From NCBI GenBank assembly GCA_050250375.1, contig JBFWOS010000002.1, positions 282,980 to 346,979 on the forward strand: 64,000 nucleotides of DNA, in the 5' to 3' direction. The position numbers were made by a program, and so were the translations under genes. Below the pieces are notes generated by a model, which saw only the letters and a list, made by a program, of their open reading frames with translations, did no database searches and had not been told where the DNA came from. Positions 25,226-29,438 of the stretch are shown piece after piece. The first letter of the stretch is position 1, and each line of letters opens with the position of its first letter. The DNA is from Candidatus Omnitrophota bacterium (GTDB lineage Bacteria > Omnitrophota > Gorgyraeia > Zapsychrales > Zapsychraceae).

Positions 25226-26221
25226 ATGAGAGTAGCCGTTTTTAACACCAAGTCGTACGACAAGCAGTTTCTGGAAGAGGCCAACGCCGGCCGGCATGAA
25301 TTTGTTTTTTTTGAAGCCCACATAAACCGGACCACCTGCCCGCTGGCTTACGGGTTTGAAGCCGTCTGCGTGTTCGTCAATGATATCATTGACCGGGAGG
25401 TCCTGGAGCTGCTGGCCGCCAACGGGACCACGCTGATCGCCCTGCGCTGCTCCGGCTATAATAATGTCGACCTTCCGGCGGCCGCCCGGCTGGGGATCAA
25501 GGTCGCCCGGGTGCCCGCGTATTCCCCGCACGGCGTCGCGGAACACGCGGTGGCCATGATGATGTCGCTGAACCGCAAGATTTACCGGGCGTATAACCGC
25601 ATCCGCGAGGGGAATTTTTCGCTGGACGGTCTGCTTGGGTTCGAGATGAACGGCAAGACCGTCGGGATCATCGGGACCGGAAAGATCGGTTACCTCACCG
25701 CGGCGCTCTTAAAAGGTTTCGGCATGAACCTGCTGGGGTACGACGTCCGCAAAAATCCGGAAGCGGAAGCCATCGGGATGACATACGTGAGTCTGGATGA
25801 ACTCTACCGGCAAAGTGATATCATCAGCCTGCATATCCCTCTGCTGAAAGACACTTATCACATCATCAACGAGCGGTCGGTCGCCCTGATGAAAGACAGG
25901 GTGATGCTGATCAATACCAGCCGGGGCGGGCTGATTGATACCCAGAGCGTGATCGACGGATTGAAGTCCGGGAAGATCGGATATCTGGGCCTGGATGTTT
26001 ACGAAGAGGAAGGGGACCTGTTTTTTGAAGACCTTTCCGGCCATGTGATCCAGGACGACGTCTTCGCGCGGTTATTGATTTTTCCCAACGTGGTGATCAC
26101 CGGGCACCAGGCCTTTTTCACCGCCACTGCCCTGAAAAATATCGCTGAAACGACCATTAGCAACATCACCGCCCACGCGGAAAACCGGATCGATCCGGCC
26201 AATCTGGTCGTTTTGAAATAA
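25226..26221 (+). CDS. D-isomer-specific 2-hydroxyacid dehydrogenase (D-lactate dehydrogenase-like)
   Basis: NAD-binding GIIGTGKIGY. Conserved catalytic region. Confidence 0.75.
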   Translation: MRVAVFNTKSYDKQFLEEANAGRHEFVFFEAHINRTTCPLAYGFEAVCVFVNDIIDREVLELLAANGTTLIALRCSGYNNVDLPAAARLGIKVARVPAYSPHGVAEHAVAMMMSLNRKIYRAYNRIREGNFSLDGLLGFEMNGKTVGIIGTGKIGYLTAALLKGFGMNLLGYDVRKNPEAEAIGMTYVSLDELYRQSDIISLHIPLLKDTYHIINERSVALMKDRVMLINTSRGGLIDTQSVIDGLKSGKIGYLGLDVYEEEGDLFFEDLSGHVIQDDVFARLLIFPNVVITGHQAFFTATALKNIAETTISNITAHAENRIDPANLVVLK

Positions 26222-26315
26222 TTTATCCCAGTTATCTGAATTTTTTTAACGGTTGGTCCAAATTCTTTAACACCAAAAACTTCGTGCTTTACACCGTGGT
26301 AAAAGTCTGGTATAA

Positions 26316-26606
26316 ATGATTCTCATTAAATCCCCCTTATTTTCTAAAAGGGGCGGTTTTGTGTATTATTTGTATATATTAAAAAGCGAGAATTATCCGA
26401 AAACATACGTTGGGAGTACGGAGAATTTAAGCAGAAGGTTCGCAGAGCATAACAGACGGAAAGTAAAGTCCTCCAAAGCTTTTGCTCCGTATGGATTGAT
26501 ATATTCCGAAGAATTTTGTTCATTGAAACAAGCAAGACAAAGAGAAAAATATTTTAAGTCGACCTCAGGCAGAAGAGAGATAAAAAAGAAATTCTTTTCC
26601 TGTTAA
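26316..26606 (+). CDS. GIY-YIG nuclease family protein (YhbQ/UPF0213-like)
   Basis: VYYLYILKS...YVGSTENLSRRFAEHN matches the GIY-YIG core. About 95 aa. Confidence 0.65.
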   Translation: MILIKSPLFSKRGGFVYYLYILKSENYPKTYVGSTENLSRRFAEHNRRKVKSSKAFAPYGLIYSEEFCSLKQARQREKYFKSTSGRREIKKKFFSC

Positions 26607-26629
26607 AATATTTTTTGGAAAGTTATTTG

Positions 26630-27085
26630 TGCAATAGGAGAGTCCTCCAAATTTGGAGAGACTTCTCCAAAGTTTTTTCTGGAGAAAGTTAAAGGAGAGT
26701 CCACCTCACCGGTCATATTGAAGATATTTGACCGGTGGGTGAGACTTTCACGCTAAGAATTCGATTATCGAAGATTAATGAGGAGAGTCCGCCTCGCCAA
26801 AATCAAAGATTTTGGCGGGCGAGACTTCTCCAAAATTTTTTCTTCGAAAAAATTTTGGAGAGGTGGCAGAGTGGTCGATTGCAGCTGCCTGCTAAGCAGT
26901 TGTCCTGGAAACGGGACCCAGGGTTCGAACCCCTGCCTCTCCGCCATTTTCTGACAATACTCGGGTCCTCCAAATTTGTTTACAAATTTGGAGAGATCTC
27001 ACAAAATTCATAGAATTTTGTGGACGAGACCTCGCCCTCCAAAATTGTGAAACAATTTTGGAGAGACGGGTCCGCCATTTTACTT
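26630..27085. repeat. array of at least 7 short quasi-palindromic hairpin units that surrounds the tRNA-Ser gene
   Basis: Units are bracketed by GGAGAGTCC...GAGAC boxes. Cores include the perfect 14-bp palindrome CTCCAAATTTGGAG, a 15-bp-stem hairpin ctccaaaattttttc/ttc/gaaaaaattttggag, a 12-bp-stem ctccaaatttgt/tt/acaaatttggag and ctccaaaattgt/gaa/acaattttggag. Confidence 0.6.
26857..26946 (+). tRNA. tRNA-Ser(GCT), type II with long variable arm; CCA encoded
   Basis: Acceptor GGAGAGG/CCTCTCC. Anticodon loop CTGCTAA. 17-nt variable arm. T-arm CAGGG/TTCGAAC/CCCTG. Discriminator G followed by CCA. Confidence 0.8.
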
Positions 27086-27216
27086 CCTCAAAGCCCGCGT
27101 TGAATGCCTGATCCCGGATCTCAAATCCACGTACGATCCAATGTGAATTATCTATTTACATAATCCCCATCGCCGATTAATATAGAAAAGAATTTAATCG
27201 CCTCAACAAATCCACT

Positions 27217-28362
27217 ATGAAAAAAAACTGGATCAAATTTAATCGCAATGAATTTTCGGGAAGTATTGGTGATTTAGGAACCGATTTTCCTTTGATCACG
27301 GGGATGGTCCTCGCCGCTAATCTGGATGTCGTCAGCGTTTTTGTGATGTTCGGACTGATGCAGGTCCTGACCGGACTGATTTACGGTTTACCGATGCCGC
27401 TGCAGCCGTTAAAGGCCATGGCCGTTTTGGTTATTACCCAGAATATCCAGGCGCCGGTTTTATATGGAGCGGGTCTAGCCATTGGAGTTGTCATGCTCAT
27501 TTTAAGTATGTCGGGCCTTCTTGACTGGCTGGCGAAAATGATCCCGGCCTGTGTGGTTCGGGGAATTCAGTTCGGTCTGGGGTTGTCGCTGGCTTCGCTG
27601 GCGCTTAAGAAATACGTGCCGAGTATGGGCGGGGAAGGATATGTCCTGGCCGGCATTTGTTTTGTGATCATGGTCATTTTGTTGGGAAACCGGCGTTTTC
27701 CGCCCGGAGTTTTTGTGATCGGATTAGGTCTGCTGTACGCGGTTTTTTTTAAGGTGGATTTTCATGCGCTCGCCCAATCCGTGGGATTCAGCCGTCCGCA
27801 TTTTGTTGTTCCAACAGCGGGGGATATACTGACCGGATTTTTTATTTTAAGTCTTCCTCAATTACCTTTGTCCATTTCAAATTCTGTCATTGCGACCAAT
27901 AAAACAGTCCAGGATCTTTTTCCGGAACGAAAATTGTCGGTCAAGAAAATCGGGTTAACATATTCCGTCATCAACCTGATCCTGCCTTTTTTCAGAGGGA
28001 TTCCTGTCTGCCACGGCTGCGGGGGGTTAGCCGGCCATTATGCCTTGGGGGCGCGCACGGGAGGGTCGGTCATTATTTACGGATCCGTTTTTATCCTGAT
28101 CGGACTTTTGTTCAGCCAGGCGTTTCATCAAATCATTGATTTTTTTCCTCAGCCGGTGCTGGGGGTGGTGCTGATGTTTGAGGCCTTGACCCTGTTGCTT
28201 TTTATCCGGGATCAGACACAAAGCAAACGGGATACCGCGATCGCCCTGCTGGTGGCCCTGATCGCGATGACCCTGCCCCAGGGTTATATTGTCGGGCTGA
28301 TTGTCGGGACAATTTTATATTACGCTCACAAGAATTTTTATCGGGATGCCCCTTCCGTCTAA
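27217..28362 (+). CDS. MOT1-family (sulfate-permease-like) putative molybdate transporter
   Basis: MOT1 signature motifs PMPLQPLKAMAVL and PVCHGCGGLAGHYALGARTG. About 10 TM helices. Confidence 0.55.
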   Translation: MKKNWIKFNRNEFSGSIGDLGTDFPLITGMVLAANLDVVSVFVMFGLMQVLTGLIYGLPMPLQPLKAMAVLVITQNIQAPVLYGAGLAIGVVMLILSMSGLLDWLAKMIPACVVRGIQFGLGLSLASLALKKYVPSMGGEGYVLAGICFVIMVILLGNRRFPPGVFVIGLGLLYAVFFKVDFHALAQSVGFSRPHFVVPTAGDILTGFFILSLPQLPLSISNSVIATNKTVQDLFPERKLSVKKIGLTYSVINLILPFFRGIPVCHGCGGLAGHYALGARTGGSVIIYGSVFILIGLLFSQAFHQIIDFFPQPVLGVVLMFEALTLLLFIRDQTQSKRDTAIALLVALIAMTLPQGYIVGLIVGTILYYAHKNFYRDAPSV

Positions 28363-28400: not shown

Positions 28401-29438
28401 CTATTTATTTTTTTTCAGCCGCTCCAGCCGCCAAATAATTCGCAGAACATACCCTCCCGGTTTTGTAAAAATAAAACGTTGCCAGACCATGTGGAAAAAA
28501 GATATGATCCGTTCCGGCCAGTAAGCCGAAACAGAGGCGGGAGGATTGGGTGAAGCGATAAATTTCTTAAGGGTGTCGGAAAACTTCTTGAAAAATATTT
28601 GATGGATATCCAGCCGGTTCGGGTCGGTGAGATTACTCATGGAAATGATCATCGGGTTGGTGTTGATCTCCCAGGTCTGGACACGTCCTTCGAGGATTCC
28701 AAAATCGATCCGTCCATACTGGATGCCGGCGGTTTTAAAGATGGTCAGCAGCTGATCCTGGTACGGATTGTTTTCCAGAAAATTTATTTCTTCAGAATGG
28801 AACGACGGCGTGAGATCTTTCTTTGAATATTTCAGGACCCAGTCATTCCCGAACAGGATATGACGGGGGATGATGACGCCGTCCATGATGAACGATGAAT
28901 ATTTGCGGAAGATCCCGTCGGAATCGGCCACGTCGCAATATTCCGTCACGAGCCATTCATCCATGTTTTCCCGTTCCGATTGGAGTCGGGCCACGGCCGC
29001 GCGCAGGTCCTGCGGCGAGCGGAGCAGTCCGGTCTGCGGCCCGCGGTGATCGTCGGCCCGACGCAGAAACACCGGAAAGCGGGCGCGGGAGAGGTCTTCA
29101 TCCATCCTGTAAACATTAAACGAATTTAATCCTTGATCATGCAGTTTCCGCAGCAGCGGGTAGCGGCTTAATGTCGTGTTGGGGTTGTTCAGGATTTTGT
29201 ATTGATCGGGCAAGCCGCCCAGTTTCCGGTAGATATCGAGCACGGAATCACGAAACGGAAGCCCCTTGAGCAGTTCAAGGTCACTGAAAATATAAAGCCC
29301 TTTGGGAAATGTCTTTTTCCGGACCAGGGACTGATAAGGGACCGGAAGTATGTTCCAGAAATGGACCCTTCCCCAAAGCGCGAGGTAATGGTTGATCGGA
29401 TTACGGTTCTTTCGGGTGAATAGATAATAGATCTGCAT
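28401..29438 (-). CDS. ATP-grasp-like domain protein of unknown substrate
   Basis: VTEYCDV...FIMDGVIIP and RIDFGILEGRVQTWEINTNP resemble ATP-grasp adenine-binding and Mg-binding segments. Confidence 0.35.
   Translation of the reverse strand: MQIYYLFTRKNRNPINHYLALWGRVHFWNILPVPYQSLVRKKTFPKGLYIFSDLELLKGLPFRDSVLDIYRKLGGLPDQYKILNNPNTTLSRYPLLRKLHDQGLNSFNVYRMDEDLSRARFPVFLRRADDHRGPQTGLLRSPQDLRAAVARLQSERENMDEWLVTEYCDVADSDGIFRKYSSFIMDGVIIPRHILFGNDWVLKYSKKDLTPSFHSEEINFLENNPYQDQLLTIFKTAGIQYGRIDFGILEGRVQTWEINTNPMIISMSNLTDPNRLDIHQIFFKKFSDTLKKFIASPNPPASVSAYWPERIISFFHMVWQRFIFTKPGGYVLRIIWRLERLKKNK

Follow-up and report, generated by a model that had tools for sequence, protein, structure and literature searches.

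Among described systems, the one closest to the locus considered here is SegB of phage T4, a free-standing GIY-YIG homing endonuclease encoded in the T4 tRNA gene cluster, whose recognition site, according to the published abstract, includes the TψC motif of tRNA genes (PMC2330249); a 2026 abstract adds that SegB promotes segmental amplification of loci (PMC13096335). We analyzed a 64-kb stretch of a Candidatus Omnitrophota genome (64,000 nucleotides, nt, of contig JBFWOS010000002.1; hereafter the window) in which a mini GIY-YIG nuclease gene and an array of hairpins adjoin a tRNA-Ser(GCT) gene, and which contains what looks like an undescribed tRNA-targeting selfish element. Judged from the SegB abstracts, the two systems have in common that a GIY-YIG gene lies among tRNA genes, that the target is set by a conserved tRNA gene sequence, and that the gene would spread along with adjacent tRNA DNA, and the segmental amplification attributed to SegB recalls the stacked units of the window array. 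SegB is a phage protein, whereas proteins of the window type are chromosomal (Omnitrophota, Planctomycetota, and Nitrospirota), and a tblastn search of 50,697 phage records found no phage homologue of the window protein. SegB is also much larger than the 81-amino-acid (aa) window protein and has a separate DNA-binding region. The SegB abstract names neither a two-hairpin module nor a duplication of the tRNA end (PMC2330249). With free-standing homing endonuclease genes in general, our locus shares a nuclease gene placed beside a conserved target gene and not in an intron; because the proteins have no DNA-binding domain, we describe them as working like such genes and do not call them members. 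The kind of gene, free-standing and homing-type, is thus a known one, and what is unusual is the structured junction module and the specificity for tRNA termini.

Two further comparisons concern the protein and the hairpins separately. In size and single-domain GIY-YIG architecture the protein resembles the UPF0213 / COG2827 group (the Escherichia coli YhbQ type), but the similarity is marginal: the solved structures that match best, BH0048 (1zg2, E = 0.04) and EF2693 (1ywl, E = 0.18), both belong to UPF0213, and the full-text searches that bore on this group found no literature linking UPF0213 / COG2827 proteins to tRNA genes. The hairpins resemble integron attC sites in having conserved boxes around a variable palindromic center, conserved extrahelical bases, and a structure that counts for more than the sequence; they differ in the boxes themselves, in the absence here of an integron integrase and of gene cassettes, and in their fixed position at tRNA-Ser ends. 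No title or abstract dealt with bacterial mini GIY-YIG genes at tRNA ends, and full-text searches gave papers on fungal mitochondrial and phage homing endonucleases.

The only tRNA gene in the window, tRNA-Ser(GCT) at 26857–26946 on the plus strand (ARAGORN), is intact, encodes its CCA, and scores 56.8 bits against Rfam RF00005 (threshold 29), giving a cloverleaf with a valid anticodon. Upstream of it, also on the plus strand, lies the mini GIY-YIG gene (26361–26606), whose 81-aa product consists of the catalytic domain only (Pfam PF01541, E = 1e-13, 51.8 bits against a cut-off of 22.6); 30 nt separate its stop codon at 26606 from the first box of the array. The 494 nt from 26607 to 27100 contain about nine hairpins, the tRNA not counted, and fold with z-scores of −12.5 and −12.1 on the two strands relative to shuffled sequences. 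The hairpin array that an initial annotation had placed at a tRNA-Ser(GCT) beside a GIY-YIG gene is therefore real, as judged by ARAGORN, Rfam, PF01541, and a folding z of about −12. Within the window, the motifs GGAGAGTC, GACTTCTCC, and CTCCAAA are restricted to the array, and the composite pattern AGGAGAGTCC-NCC..GGN-GAGACTT has three matches against 0.00 expected; no further copies of the module were found elsewhere in the 64 kb.

Outside the window the module is recurrent. In full it reads GGAGAGYCC-hairpin-GAGRCTTCTCC-AT-rich palindrome-GGAGAGG, where the last box is the end of the tRNA-Ser gene itself, and exact-pattern scans of public genomes and metagenomes placed it at about 80 loci, nearly all abutting a tRNA-Ser terminus, in keeping with the earlier suspicion of a repeat family tied to the tRNA acceptor end. 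Run against one genome per species (185,579 species), the exact box pattern gave 10 matches, eight of them real modules from assemblies of Omnitrophota and Planctomycetota, and all eight lie ∼20–26 nt from a tRNA-Ser gene. A slightly looser pattern, with two box positions left free, gave 69 loci in metagenomes, where about 70 of 73 matches are real modules; viral contigs gave no match to the module pattern, and a module variant occurs in Nitrospirota. Nearly every module is 18–28 nt from a tRNA-Ser with anticodon GCT, GGA, CGA, or TGA, and a few abut a truncated tRNA-Ser end of 9–24 nt. The initial annotation had left room for repeats unique to this spot and absent from relatives; the other copies, together with a related locus described below (L091), clearly show otherwise.

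Twenty-five unique modules stand in sense orientation 5′ of the tRNA and 34 are antisense, abutting its 3′ end, and two loci (L070 and L100) have modules at both ends of one tRNA. One DNA module can fit both positions because the acceptor stem GGAGAGG/CCTCTCC makes the two gene ends near mirror images; relative to the tRNA end that it touches, its orientation is constant, both ends reading GGAGAGG from outside. Going outward from the tRNA, the order is a terminal sequence X of 6–7 nt, an AT-rich palindrome, an inverted X that is one base longer, TCTC (read as GAGA from the opposite strand), a hairpin of variable content, GGA (read as TCC from the opposite strand), an orphaned X in direct orientation, and the original flank. 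The inverted copy varies with the terminus, reading CGGAGA-A-G for CTCTCCG ends and TGGCG-A-GA for TCCGCCA ends, and in 25 of the 34 3′-end modules an orphan discriminator (as its complement) is found at the base beside box 1. Eleven further loci have the consensus of a type-2 module, tRNA...TCCGCCA-arm-loop-arm′-TGGC-GAGAYCTC-[GCC..GGC]-GGRTCC-GCCA, in which the boxes covary (T-A / C-G); this variant ends in GGA-TCCGCCA, corresponding to the last seven nt of a CCA-encoding gene.

Pair statistics for the hairpins were computed directly, as hairpins of such variable length are not reliably alignable with MAFFT and a covariance model was for that reason not built. At the free box positions, 66 unique modules have T-A 53 times, C-G 12 times, T·G once, and C·A not at all, the search pattern having allowed all four. 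In the variable arms of the second hairpin, Watson–Crick pairing reaches 97.9% (66 modules, 37 distinct arm sequences) vs. 48% when permuted, and in all 34 modules of the 3′-end class the palindrome takes in the discriminator base as a pair. Wobble pairs are few and strand-symmetric (27 vs. 23) and both strands fold equally well, from which we take the hairpins to be near-perfect DNA palindromes; the counts of G·U vs. A·C are uninformative as to which strand is functional.

The nuclease gene belongs to the same system, in line with one of the options raised from the single locus. A mini GIY-YIG open reading frame (ORF) lies within 450 nt of box 1 (tblastn) in 33 (58%) of the 57 assessable modules, that is, those with enough flank for its presence to be judged, and every ORF mapped runs in the direction of the tRNA, whichever side the module is on: on the 5′ side the order is gene, module, tRNA, and on the 3′ side tRNA, mirrored module, gene. 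Homologues picked by protein alone lead to tRNA genes as well, with a tRNA gene or fragment within ∼330 nt at seven of seven loci and partial tRNA duplicates adjoining them. The tRNAs concerned are tRNA-Gln (L084, with a 5′ tRNA fragment across the ORF that is broken up by hairpins), tRNA-Leu with pseudo-tRNA-Leu copies (L087/L088), tRNA-Arg with an inverted 3′ fragment (L089), tRNA-His (L090), tRNA-Ser of a Nitrospirae member (L096), tRNA-Ser with a module at either side (L100), and a tRNA-like fragment with a variant module (L101). The protein family itself is large, with 4430 clusters at E ≤ 1e-3 and 4271 in a profile search at E ≤ 1e-8; the few named members of the latter are from Omnitrophota, Planctomycetota, Nitrospirota, and Bacteroidota. 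For the source genome of the window, no close paralogue of the GIY-YIG protein is on record.

Several of these loci have peculiarities of their own. The tRNA-Gln 5′ fragment of L084 (1400–1500), which lies 5′ of the GIY-YIG gene, is split by two hairpins with GAGTC / GTCTC / GAGAC, and the intact tRNA-Gln begins 3 nt past the GIY-YIG stop codon. At L089 the 3′ 32 nt of tRNA-Arg(TCT) flank the GIY-YIG gene as an inverted repeat (1369–1443 and 1747–1785), a geometry unlike the direct duplications at other loci. Arrays of pseudo-tRNA-Leu lie at L087 (1150–1320 and 1750–1930) and L088 (1750–2210), beside one or two mini GIY-YIG genes, and their D- and T-arms are interrupted by 15–19-nt palindromic insertions, e.g., ATCCGCCTTCGGCGGAT. 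L101 (1630–2325) has an HNH endonuclease gene directly 3′ of the mini GIY-YIG gene and type-2 module, which may be a second selfish nuclease at one site. In an Omnitrophota genome (L014, ∼1300–1616) a GIY-YIG gene is absent and the 3′ end of an ORF is separated from tRNA-Ser(TGA) directly by a module; by eye, we take the C-terminus of that ORF to be that of a seryl-tRNA synthetase, an unconfirmed candidate.

Returning to the window, the units upstream of the tRNA form a nested tandem series, each composed of GGAGAGTCC, a first hairpin, GAGAC-TTCTCC, and a second, A/T-rich hairpin; the GGAGAG that closes each unit is the first box of the next, and the final GGAGAG is the 5′ end of the tRNA. Exact boxes are found in three units only, starting at 26637, 26694, and 26782. 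The initial description of boxes shared by all units thus holds exactly for these three, while the hairpins after the tRNA have the variants GGGTCC / GAGATCTC / GAGACCTC...GGGTCC, and its A/T-rich stems are not general, as the stem bases of units U2 and U3 are G+C-rich.

All three upstream units are on the plus strand and were delimited by sequence and box pattern, with folding in addition for U2 and U3. Both hairpins are intact in the proximal unit, U3 (26782–26864). Its first hairpin, the canonical module (26782–26831), consists of box 1 GGAGAGTCC (26782–26790), the hairpin GCC-T-CGCCAAAATC/GATTTTGGCGGGC (26791–26820), and box 2 GAGACTTCTCC (26821–26831), an architecture matched by 66 unique modules elsewhere. 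The second hairpin (26824–26864, plus strand; inverted repeat, 95% complementary, also found by folding) is a near-perfect palindrome of 19 base pairs whose 3′ arm contains tRNA nt 1–7/8 (GGAGAGG). Box 2 (CTTCTCC) has two possible pairing partners, box 1 and the tRNA end, and the hairpins consequently overlap and are partly mutually exclusive. U2 (26694–26749) is made of box 1 GGAGAGTCC (26694–26702), a 38-nt hairpin (26703–26740), and GAGACTTTC (26741–26749); it has lost TTCTCC and the second hairpin, and the spacer after it holds a small hairpin, TTCGATTATCGAA, at 26760–26772. Distal units resembling U2, also without TTCTCC, occur in L025, L083, and L091. In the distal unit U1 (26637–26686), box 1 GGAGAGTCC (26637–26645), a short hairpin TCCAAATTTGGA (26646–26657), and box 2 GAGACTTCTCC (26658–26668) are followed by the residue of a second hairpin, TTCTCCA...TGGAGAA (26663–26686). 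Decay of the upstream units is progressive, U2 then U1, and U1 is the oldest of them.

On the 3′ side of the tRNA, the 11-mer TCCGCCATTTT has exactly two copies in the window, at 26940 and 27071. Copy 1 (26940–26950, plus strand; repeat search) comprises the last 3 nt of the acceptor stem, G73, CCA, and 4 nt of flank, and copy 2 (27071–27081) is followed by the original flank, such that the whole post-tRNA block is bracketed by the duplicated tRNA end, with the copies 131 nt apart and hairpins alone between them. The duplicated tRNA 3′ end that had been recognized earlier is a genuine orphan copy, and the same architecture is seen at other loci. Within the bracket lies an extra block specific to the window (26963–27025, plus strand; sequence, inverted repeat, and fold), in the order GGGTCC, hairpin (26969–26992), GAGATCTC (26993–27000), hairpin (27001–27021), and GGAC, i.e., two type-2-like hairpins with a common central GAGATCTC; GAGATCTC/GGATCC boxes recur beside tRNA-Ser 3′ ends and GIY-YIG genes at other loci. 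It is followed by the 3′-side, type-2 module (27026–27081, plus strand; sequence, inverted and direct repeats, and fold), made of GAGACCTC (27026–27033), an imperfect hairpin (27034–27067), GGGTCC (27068–27073), and the orphan GCCA. Occupancy in the window is three type-1 units 5′ of the tRNA and two to three type-2 units 3′ of it.

An Rfam 15 search of 25500–28000 in E-value mode placed only the tRNA above threshold, every other match being far below its gathering score, so that no Rfam family fits the hairpin units. A Plastid-psbl-rps4 match on the minus strand (26892–26943, 43.3 bits against a threshold of 68) was rejected, as it appears simply to reflect the opposite strand of the T-arm and variable arm of the tRNA-Ser. 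Logan short-read contigs of the same organism end inside the palindromes flanking the tRNA (L002 at ∼26810, L004 from ∼27005). Because breaks in de Bruijn assembly are expected at palindromes, these were not counted as a sign of copies elsewhere; where metagenome-assembled genomes are built from short reads, such loci are probably split up or recovered too seldom.

The mechanically called ORF of the nuclease (26316–26606) begins at an ATG, at 26316, that lies inside a TATAAA box, and homologues of the window protein are 79–90 aa long with the N-terminus M-[FY]-Y-[VL]-Y-[IV]-L. Translation therefore most probably begins with the GTG at 26361, giving 81 aa, and the 96 aa of the annotation probably include 15 aa too many. 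The superfamily core is present, with the GIY...YIG motifs and conserved Arg, His-Asn, and Glu: Y5, Y16, G18, R26, H30, N31, E62, and K66 are invariant across a 14-sequence alignment, and the same residues are each >90% conserved among 40 sequences. The group I intron endonuclease model TIGR01453 scores 29.9, below its cut-off of 56, and covers the N-terminal domain only; a defense-system reading was set aside, the PADLOC matches being weak and partial. Upstream of the gene, the only promoter-like site for the block, read from the sequence, has TTTACA (26288–26293), a 17-nt spacer, and TATAAA (26311–26316) on the plus strand; it is missing from the consensus promoter scan list because its −10 hexamer ends in A, and we regard it as a putative promoter. 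The putative 5′ untranslated region (26316–26360) includes a CCCCC...GGGG hairpin.

The block can be compared with that of a relative (L091/L092) whose MOT1-type transporter is 85% identical in protein sequence and in which the GIY-YIG gene, array, and tRNA are retained. The tRNA is 100% identical in both L091 and L092, as is the U3 second hairpin in L091. Conservation between the window and L091 starts at the promoter-like site (TTTACA...AAAGTCTGGTATAAATGATTCTCAT), the DNA further left being unrelated, and the GIY-YIG genes are ∼70% identical at the nucleotide level (by eye from the alignment). The gene is present in both and the difference is confined to the module units. The 32 nt of U1 at 26637–26668 are absent from L091 as a unit-sized indel; at the U2 position L091 has another hairpin with the same boxes; in U3, GAGTCC/GAGAC is replaced by GAGCCC/GAGGC and the T bulge by a C-G pair, both changes being compensatory. 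After the tRNA, ∼56 nt of the window block are absent in L091, where a simple hairpin including GCCA stands instead, and the type-2 block at 27026–27081 is conserved. The array is thus conserved in relatives, yet it is remodeled unit by unit and through compensatory or conversion events.

G+C content is 32–37% in the GIY-YIG gene and array vs. ∼52% in the flanking genes, and the genes on either side of the block encode a D-2-hydroxyacid dehydrogenase and the MOT1-type transporter. Synteny with L091 breaks at the left edge of the block (∼26285 in the window, ∼2140 in L091): the gene 5′ of the breakpoint encodes the 2-hydroxyacid dehydrogenase in the window and a HAMP-GGDEF-EAL protein in L091, whereas the genes on the 3′ side (MOT1, a 345-aa ORF, SnoaL-like, and TPR) are syntenic. 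The 345-aa ORF (28401–29438, minus strand) has no Pfam match, and its position is kept in L091 (347 aa).

Other loci preserve traces of insertion into the tRNA gene. In L051 an older module is followed by tRNA-Ser nt 1–19, a hairpin, a GIY-YIG gene, a variant module, and a complete tRNA-Ser, which is the product expected of a cassette with a replacement 5′ part entering the D-loop region; L054 and L045 are the mirror case on the 3′ side, with orphan fragments of ∼25 and ∼11 nt. L087 and L088, from one sample, have identical flanks, and L088 has a second GIY-YIG gene between duplicated tRNA-Leu 3′ parts, the orphan copy carrying small palindromic insertions. Apparently within one lineage, modules at different serine isoacceptors are 98–100% identical, loops included, and the adjacent ORFs 66–96%; the spacer between module and ORF is poorly conserved and hairpin contents vary freely between lineages. 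Such an identity gradient fits gene conversion that would be strongest at the tRNA end.

On balance, we lean toward seeing the locus as a tRNA-Ser(GCT) gene colonized on both sides by selfish cassettes that target tRNA gene ends, and, jointly with this and no more firmly, toward seeing the array as the accumulated junction modules of such a cassette. The autonomous form would encode the 81-aa, catalytic-domain-only GIY-YIG nuclease, which would break tRNA-Ser DNA close to the gene end; repair would copy the cassette from an occupied tRNA-Ser gene, and annealing at the terminal heptamer would leave an orphan copy outside, namely box 1. Because the copied DNA would bring a fresh terminal heptamer, the tRNA would stay intact. 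Repeated rounds together with unequal exchange would stack units into an array, with decay hitting the oldest, outermost units first. Since the ORF always lies in the tRNA direction, it probably rides on the tRNA transcript, and the hairpins probably also keep the ORF from interfering with the folding and processing of the tRNA. The steps of cleavage and repair are suggested by the architecture, the orphan ends, the identity gradient, and the nested insertions. Seen directly in the sequences are the family and its architecture, the tRNA-Ser specificity, the linkage to GIY-YIG genes, the orphan tRNA ends, and turnover between relatives.

Several observations weigh against the selfish-cassette reading. 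There is no separate DNA-binding domain, as the Pfam domain spans nearly all 81 aa and homologues are mostly 77–140 aa, whereas characterized GIY-YIG homing endonucleases (I-TevI, SegA-G) carry one. The 42% of assessable modules without a nearby GIY-YIG gene mean that the module could be the primary entity, and the module is better conserved than the ORF, which suits continual gene conversion and selection for module function alike. An intact tRNA target is regenerated after insertion, and self-immunity is not accounted for by the cassette model; direct repeats differ in length (6–11 nt), and there are also orphan fragments of 9–25 nt. Among the loci compared there is no clean empty/occupied allele pair for a tRNA-Ser module: in a search for empty sites by synteny only L091/L092 retained the tRNA beside MOT1, and there it is occupied, while distant relatives had no synteny.

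The strongest competing explanation, though in our judgment an unlikely one, and not exclusive of the cassette, takes the module to be chiefly an RNA element within the tRNA-Ser precursor, with box 2 as anti-acceptor, able to tie up the neighboring acceptor strand in the long second hairpin, and box 1 as anti-anti-acceptor, which would release it. Its hairpins would punctuate, stabilize, or gate the processing that RNase P, RNase Z, or RNase III carries out on a joint GIY-YIG mRNA/tRNA transcript, and the GIY-YIG genes would only parasitize a structured host locus. At sense-orientation loci there is no promoter room between module and tRNA, so the module must lie in the tRNA leader; the sole promoter-like site precedes the ORF and is kept in L091, and every mapped GIY-YIG ORF shares the tRNA direction, a co-orientation strict enough to make some RNA-level role likely. 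The explanation also gains from the three-way alternative pairing, which persists in the mirror arrangement, from the preservation of both hairpins by compensatory changes, from conservation that is higher in the module than in the ORF, and from the missing GIY-YIG gene at 42% of modules. However, the boxes are conserved even when inverted relative to transcription, where the resulting RNAs would be complementary to each other, and rare, strand-symmetric G·U pairs with equal folding of both strands are atypical for a selected RNA. Nor does a host element sit easily with a sporadic occurrence (the eight exact-box modules in 185,579 species, and some tRNA-Ser genes on the same contigs without a module), with copy numbers that differ between close relatives, or with the lack of an Rfam match. 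A narrower proposal, which we hold to be rather doubtful, is that the module acts as a nucleic-acid guide, its inverted heptamer, at the foot of a conserved hairpin, pairing with the tRNA gene end or the orphan copy and so positioning a GIY-YIG enzyme of 81 aa that lacks a DNA-binding domain. In REP/RAYT and IS200/IS605 systems the target or cleavage site is recognized through base pairing with a short guide next to the hairpin. It is to these systems that a third explanation appeals, one to which we give slightly less credence still, namely that the hairpins are miniature single-strand transposition substrates directed to the tRNA terminus by the inverted heptamer, the nuclease being either the GIY-YIG protein or an HUH enzyme encoded elsewhere. 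Short, multi-copy hairpins with conserved feet and conserved bulged bases are common to both, as are non-autonomous copies in excess of enzyme genes; the internal inverted copy tracks the terminal heptamer, and the insertion position is fixed relative to a short sequence. Yet the associated enzyme here is GIY-YIG, for which strand transfer is not known, neither the window locus nor any related locus with a gene table has an HUH/Y1 transposase among its called genes, no copies were found away from tRNA ends, and the hairpins are near-perfect on both strands.

Two readings raised by the initial annotation fared poorly. A stack of intrinsic terminators, or of attenuators, on either side of the tRNA is a very improbable account of the array: strong as the hairpins are, only one weak terminator-like site (26652–26671) was found vs. 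1.8 expected in shuffles, the main hairpins are not followed by U-tracts, and the sense upstream units lie downstream of the sole promoter-like site but ahead of a tRNA that is intact and presumably essential; nor would terminators explain the conserved boxes or the two-orientation specificity for tRNA-Ser. Equally hard to credit is the idea that a genomic island with a tyrosine integrase once entered the tRNA 3′ end and left the array as its decayed remnant. Here, too, there is something in its favor, because the tRNA 3′ end is directly repeated (TCCGCCATTTT twice) and islands and prophages at tRNA sites likewise bring a replacement end that keeps the tRNA intact, with an orphan end marking the far border. 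But repeats at integrase att sites are typically longer than the 6–11 nt seen here, the inserts are 50–130 nt (∼400 nt with the ORF), with only 120 nt of hairpins between the repeats in the window, and no integrase or island genes lie within ∼4 kb. The same short architecture, moreover, recurs at dozens of loci, the tRNA 5′ end included.

Thousands of small genes in uncultured bacteria are annotated as "GIY-YIG nuclease family protein" with no role assigned, and part of them can now be placed in a context, at the exact ends of tRNA genes and in the company of orphan tRNA ends and conserved hairpin modules. Were they selfish genes of the homing type, the phage Seg endonucleases would have a widespread chromosomal counterpart, and the pseudo-tRNA fragments and palindromic clutter around tRNA genes would be explained. 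A role of the hairpins in guiding the nuclease, or in gating the maturation of tRNA-Ser, would lend the system mechanistic and possibly technological interest; guidance, if true, would parallel, with a GIY-YIG enzyme, the hairpin-plus-guide logic of IS200/IS605 and would define a new class of structure-guided mobile element specialized on tRNA gene termini. For annotation of tRNA-Ser loci in PVC-group genomes, the module provides a new and easily searchable motif.

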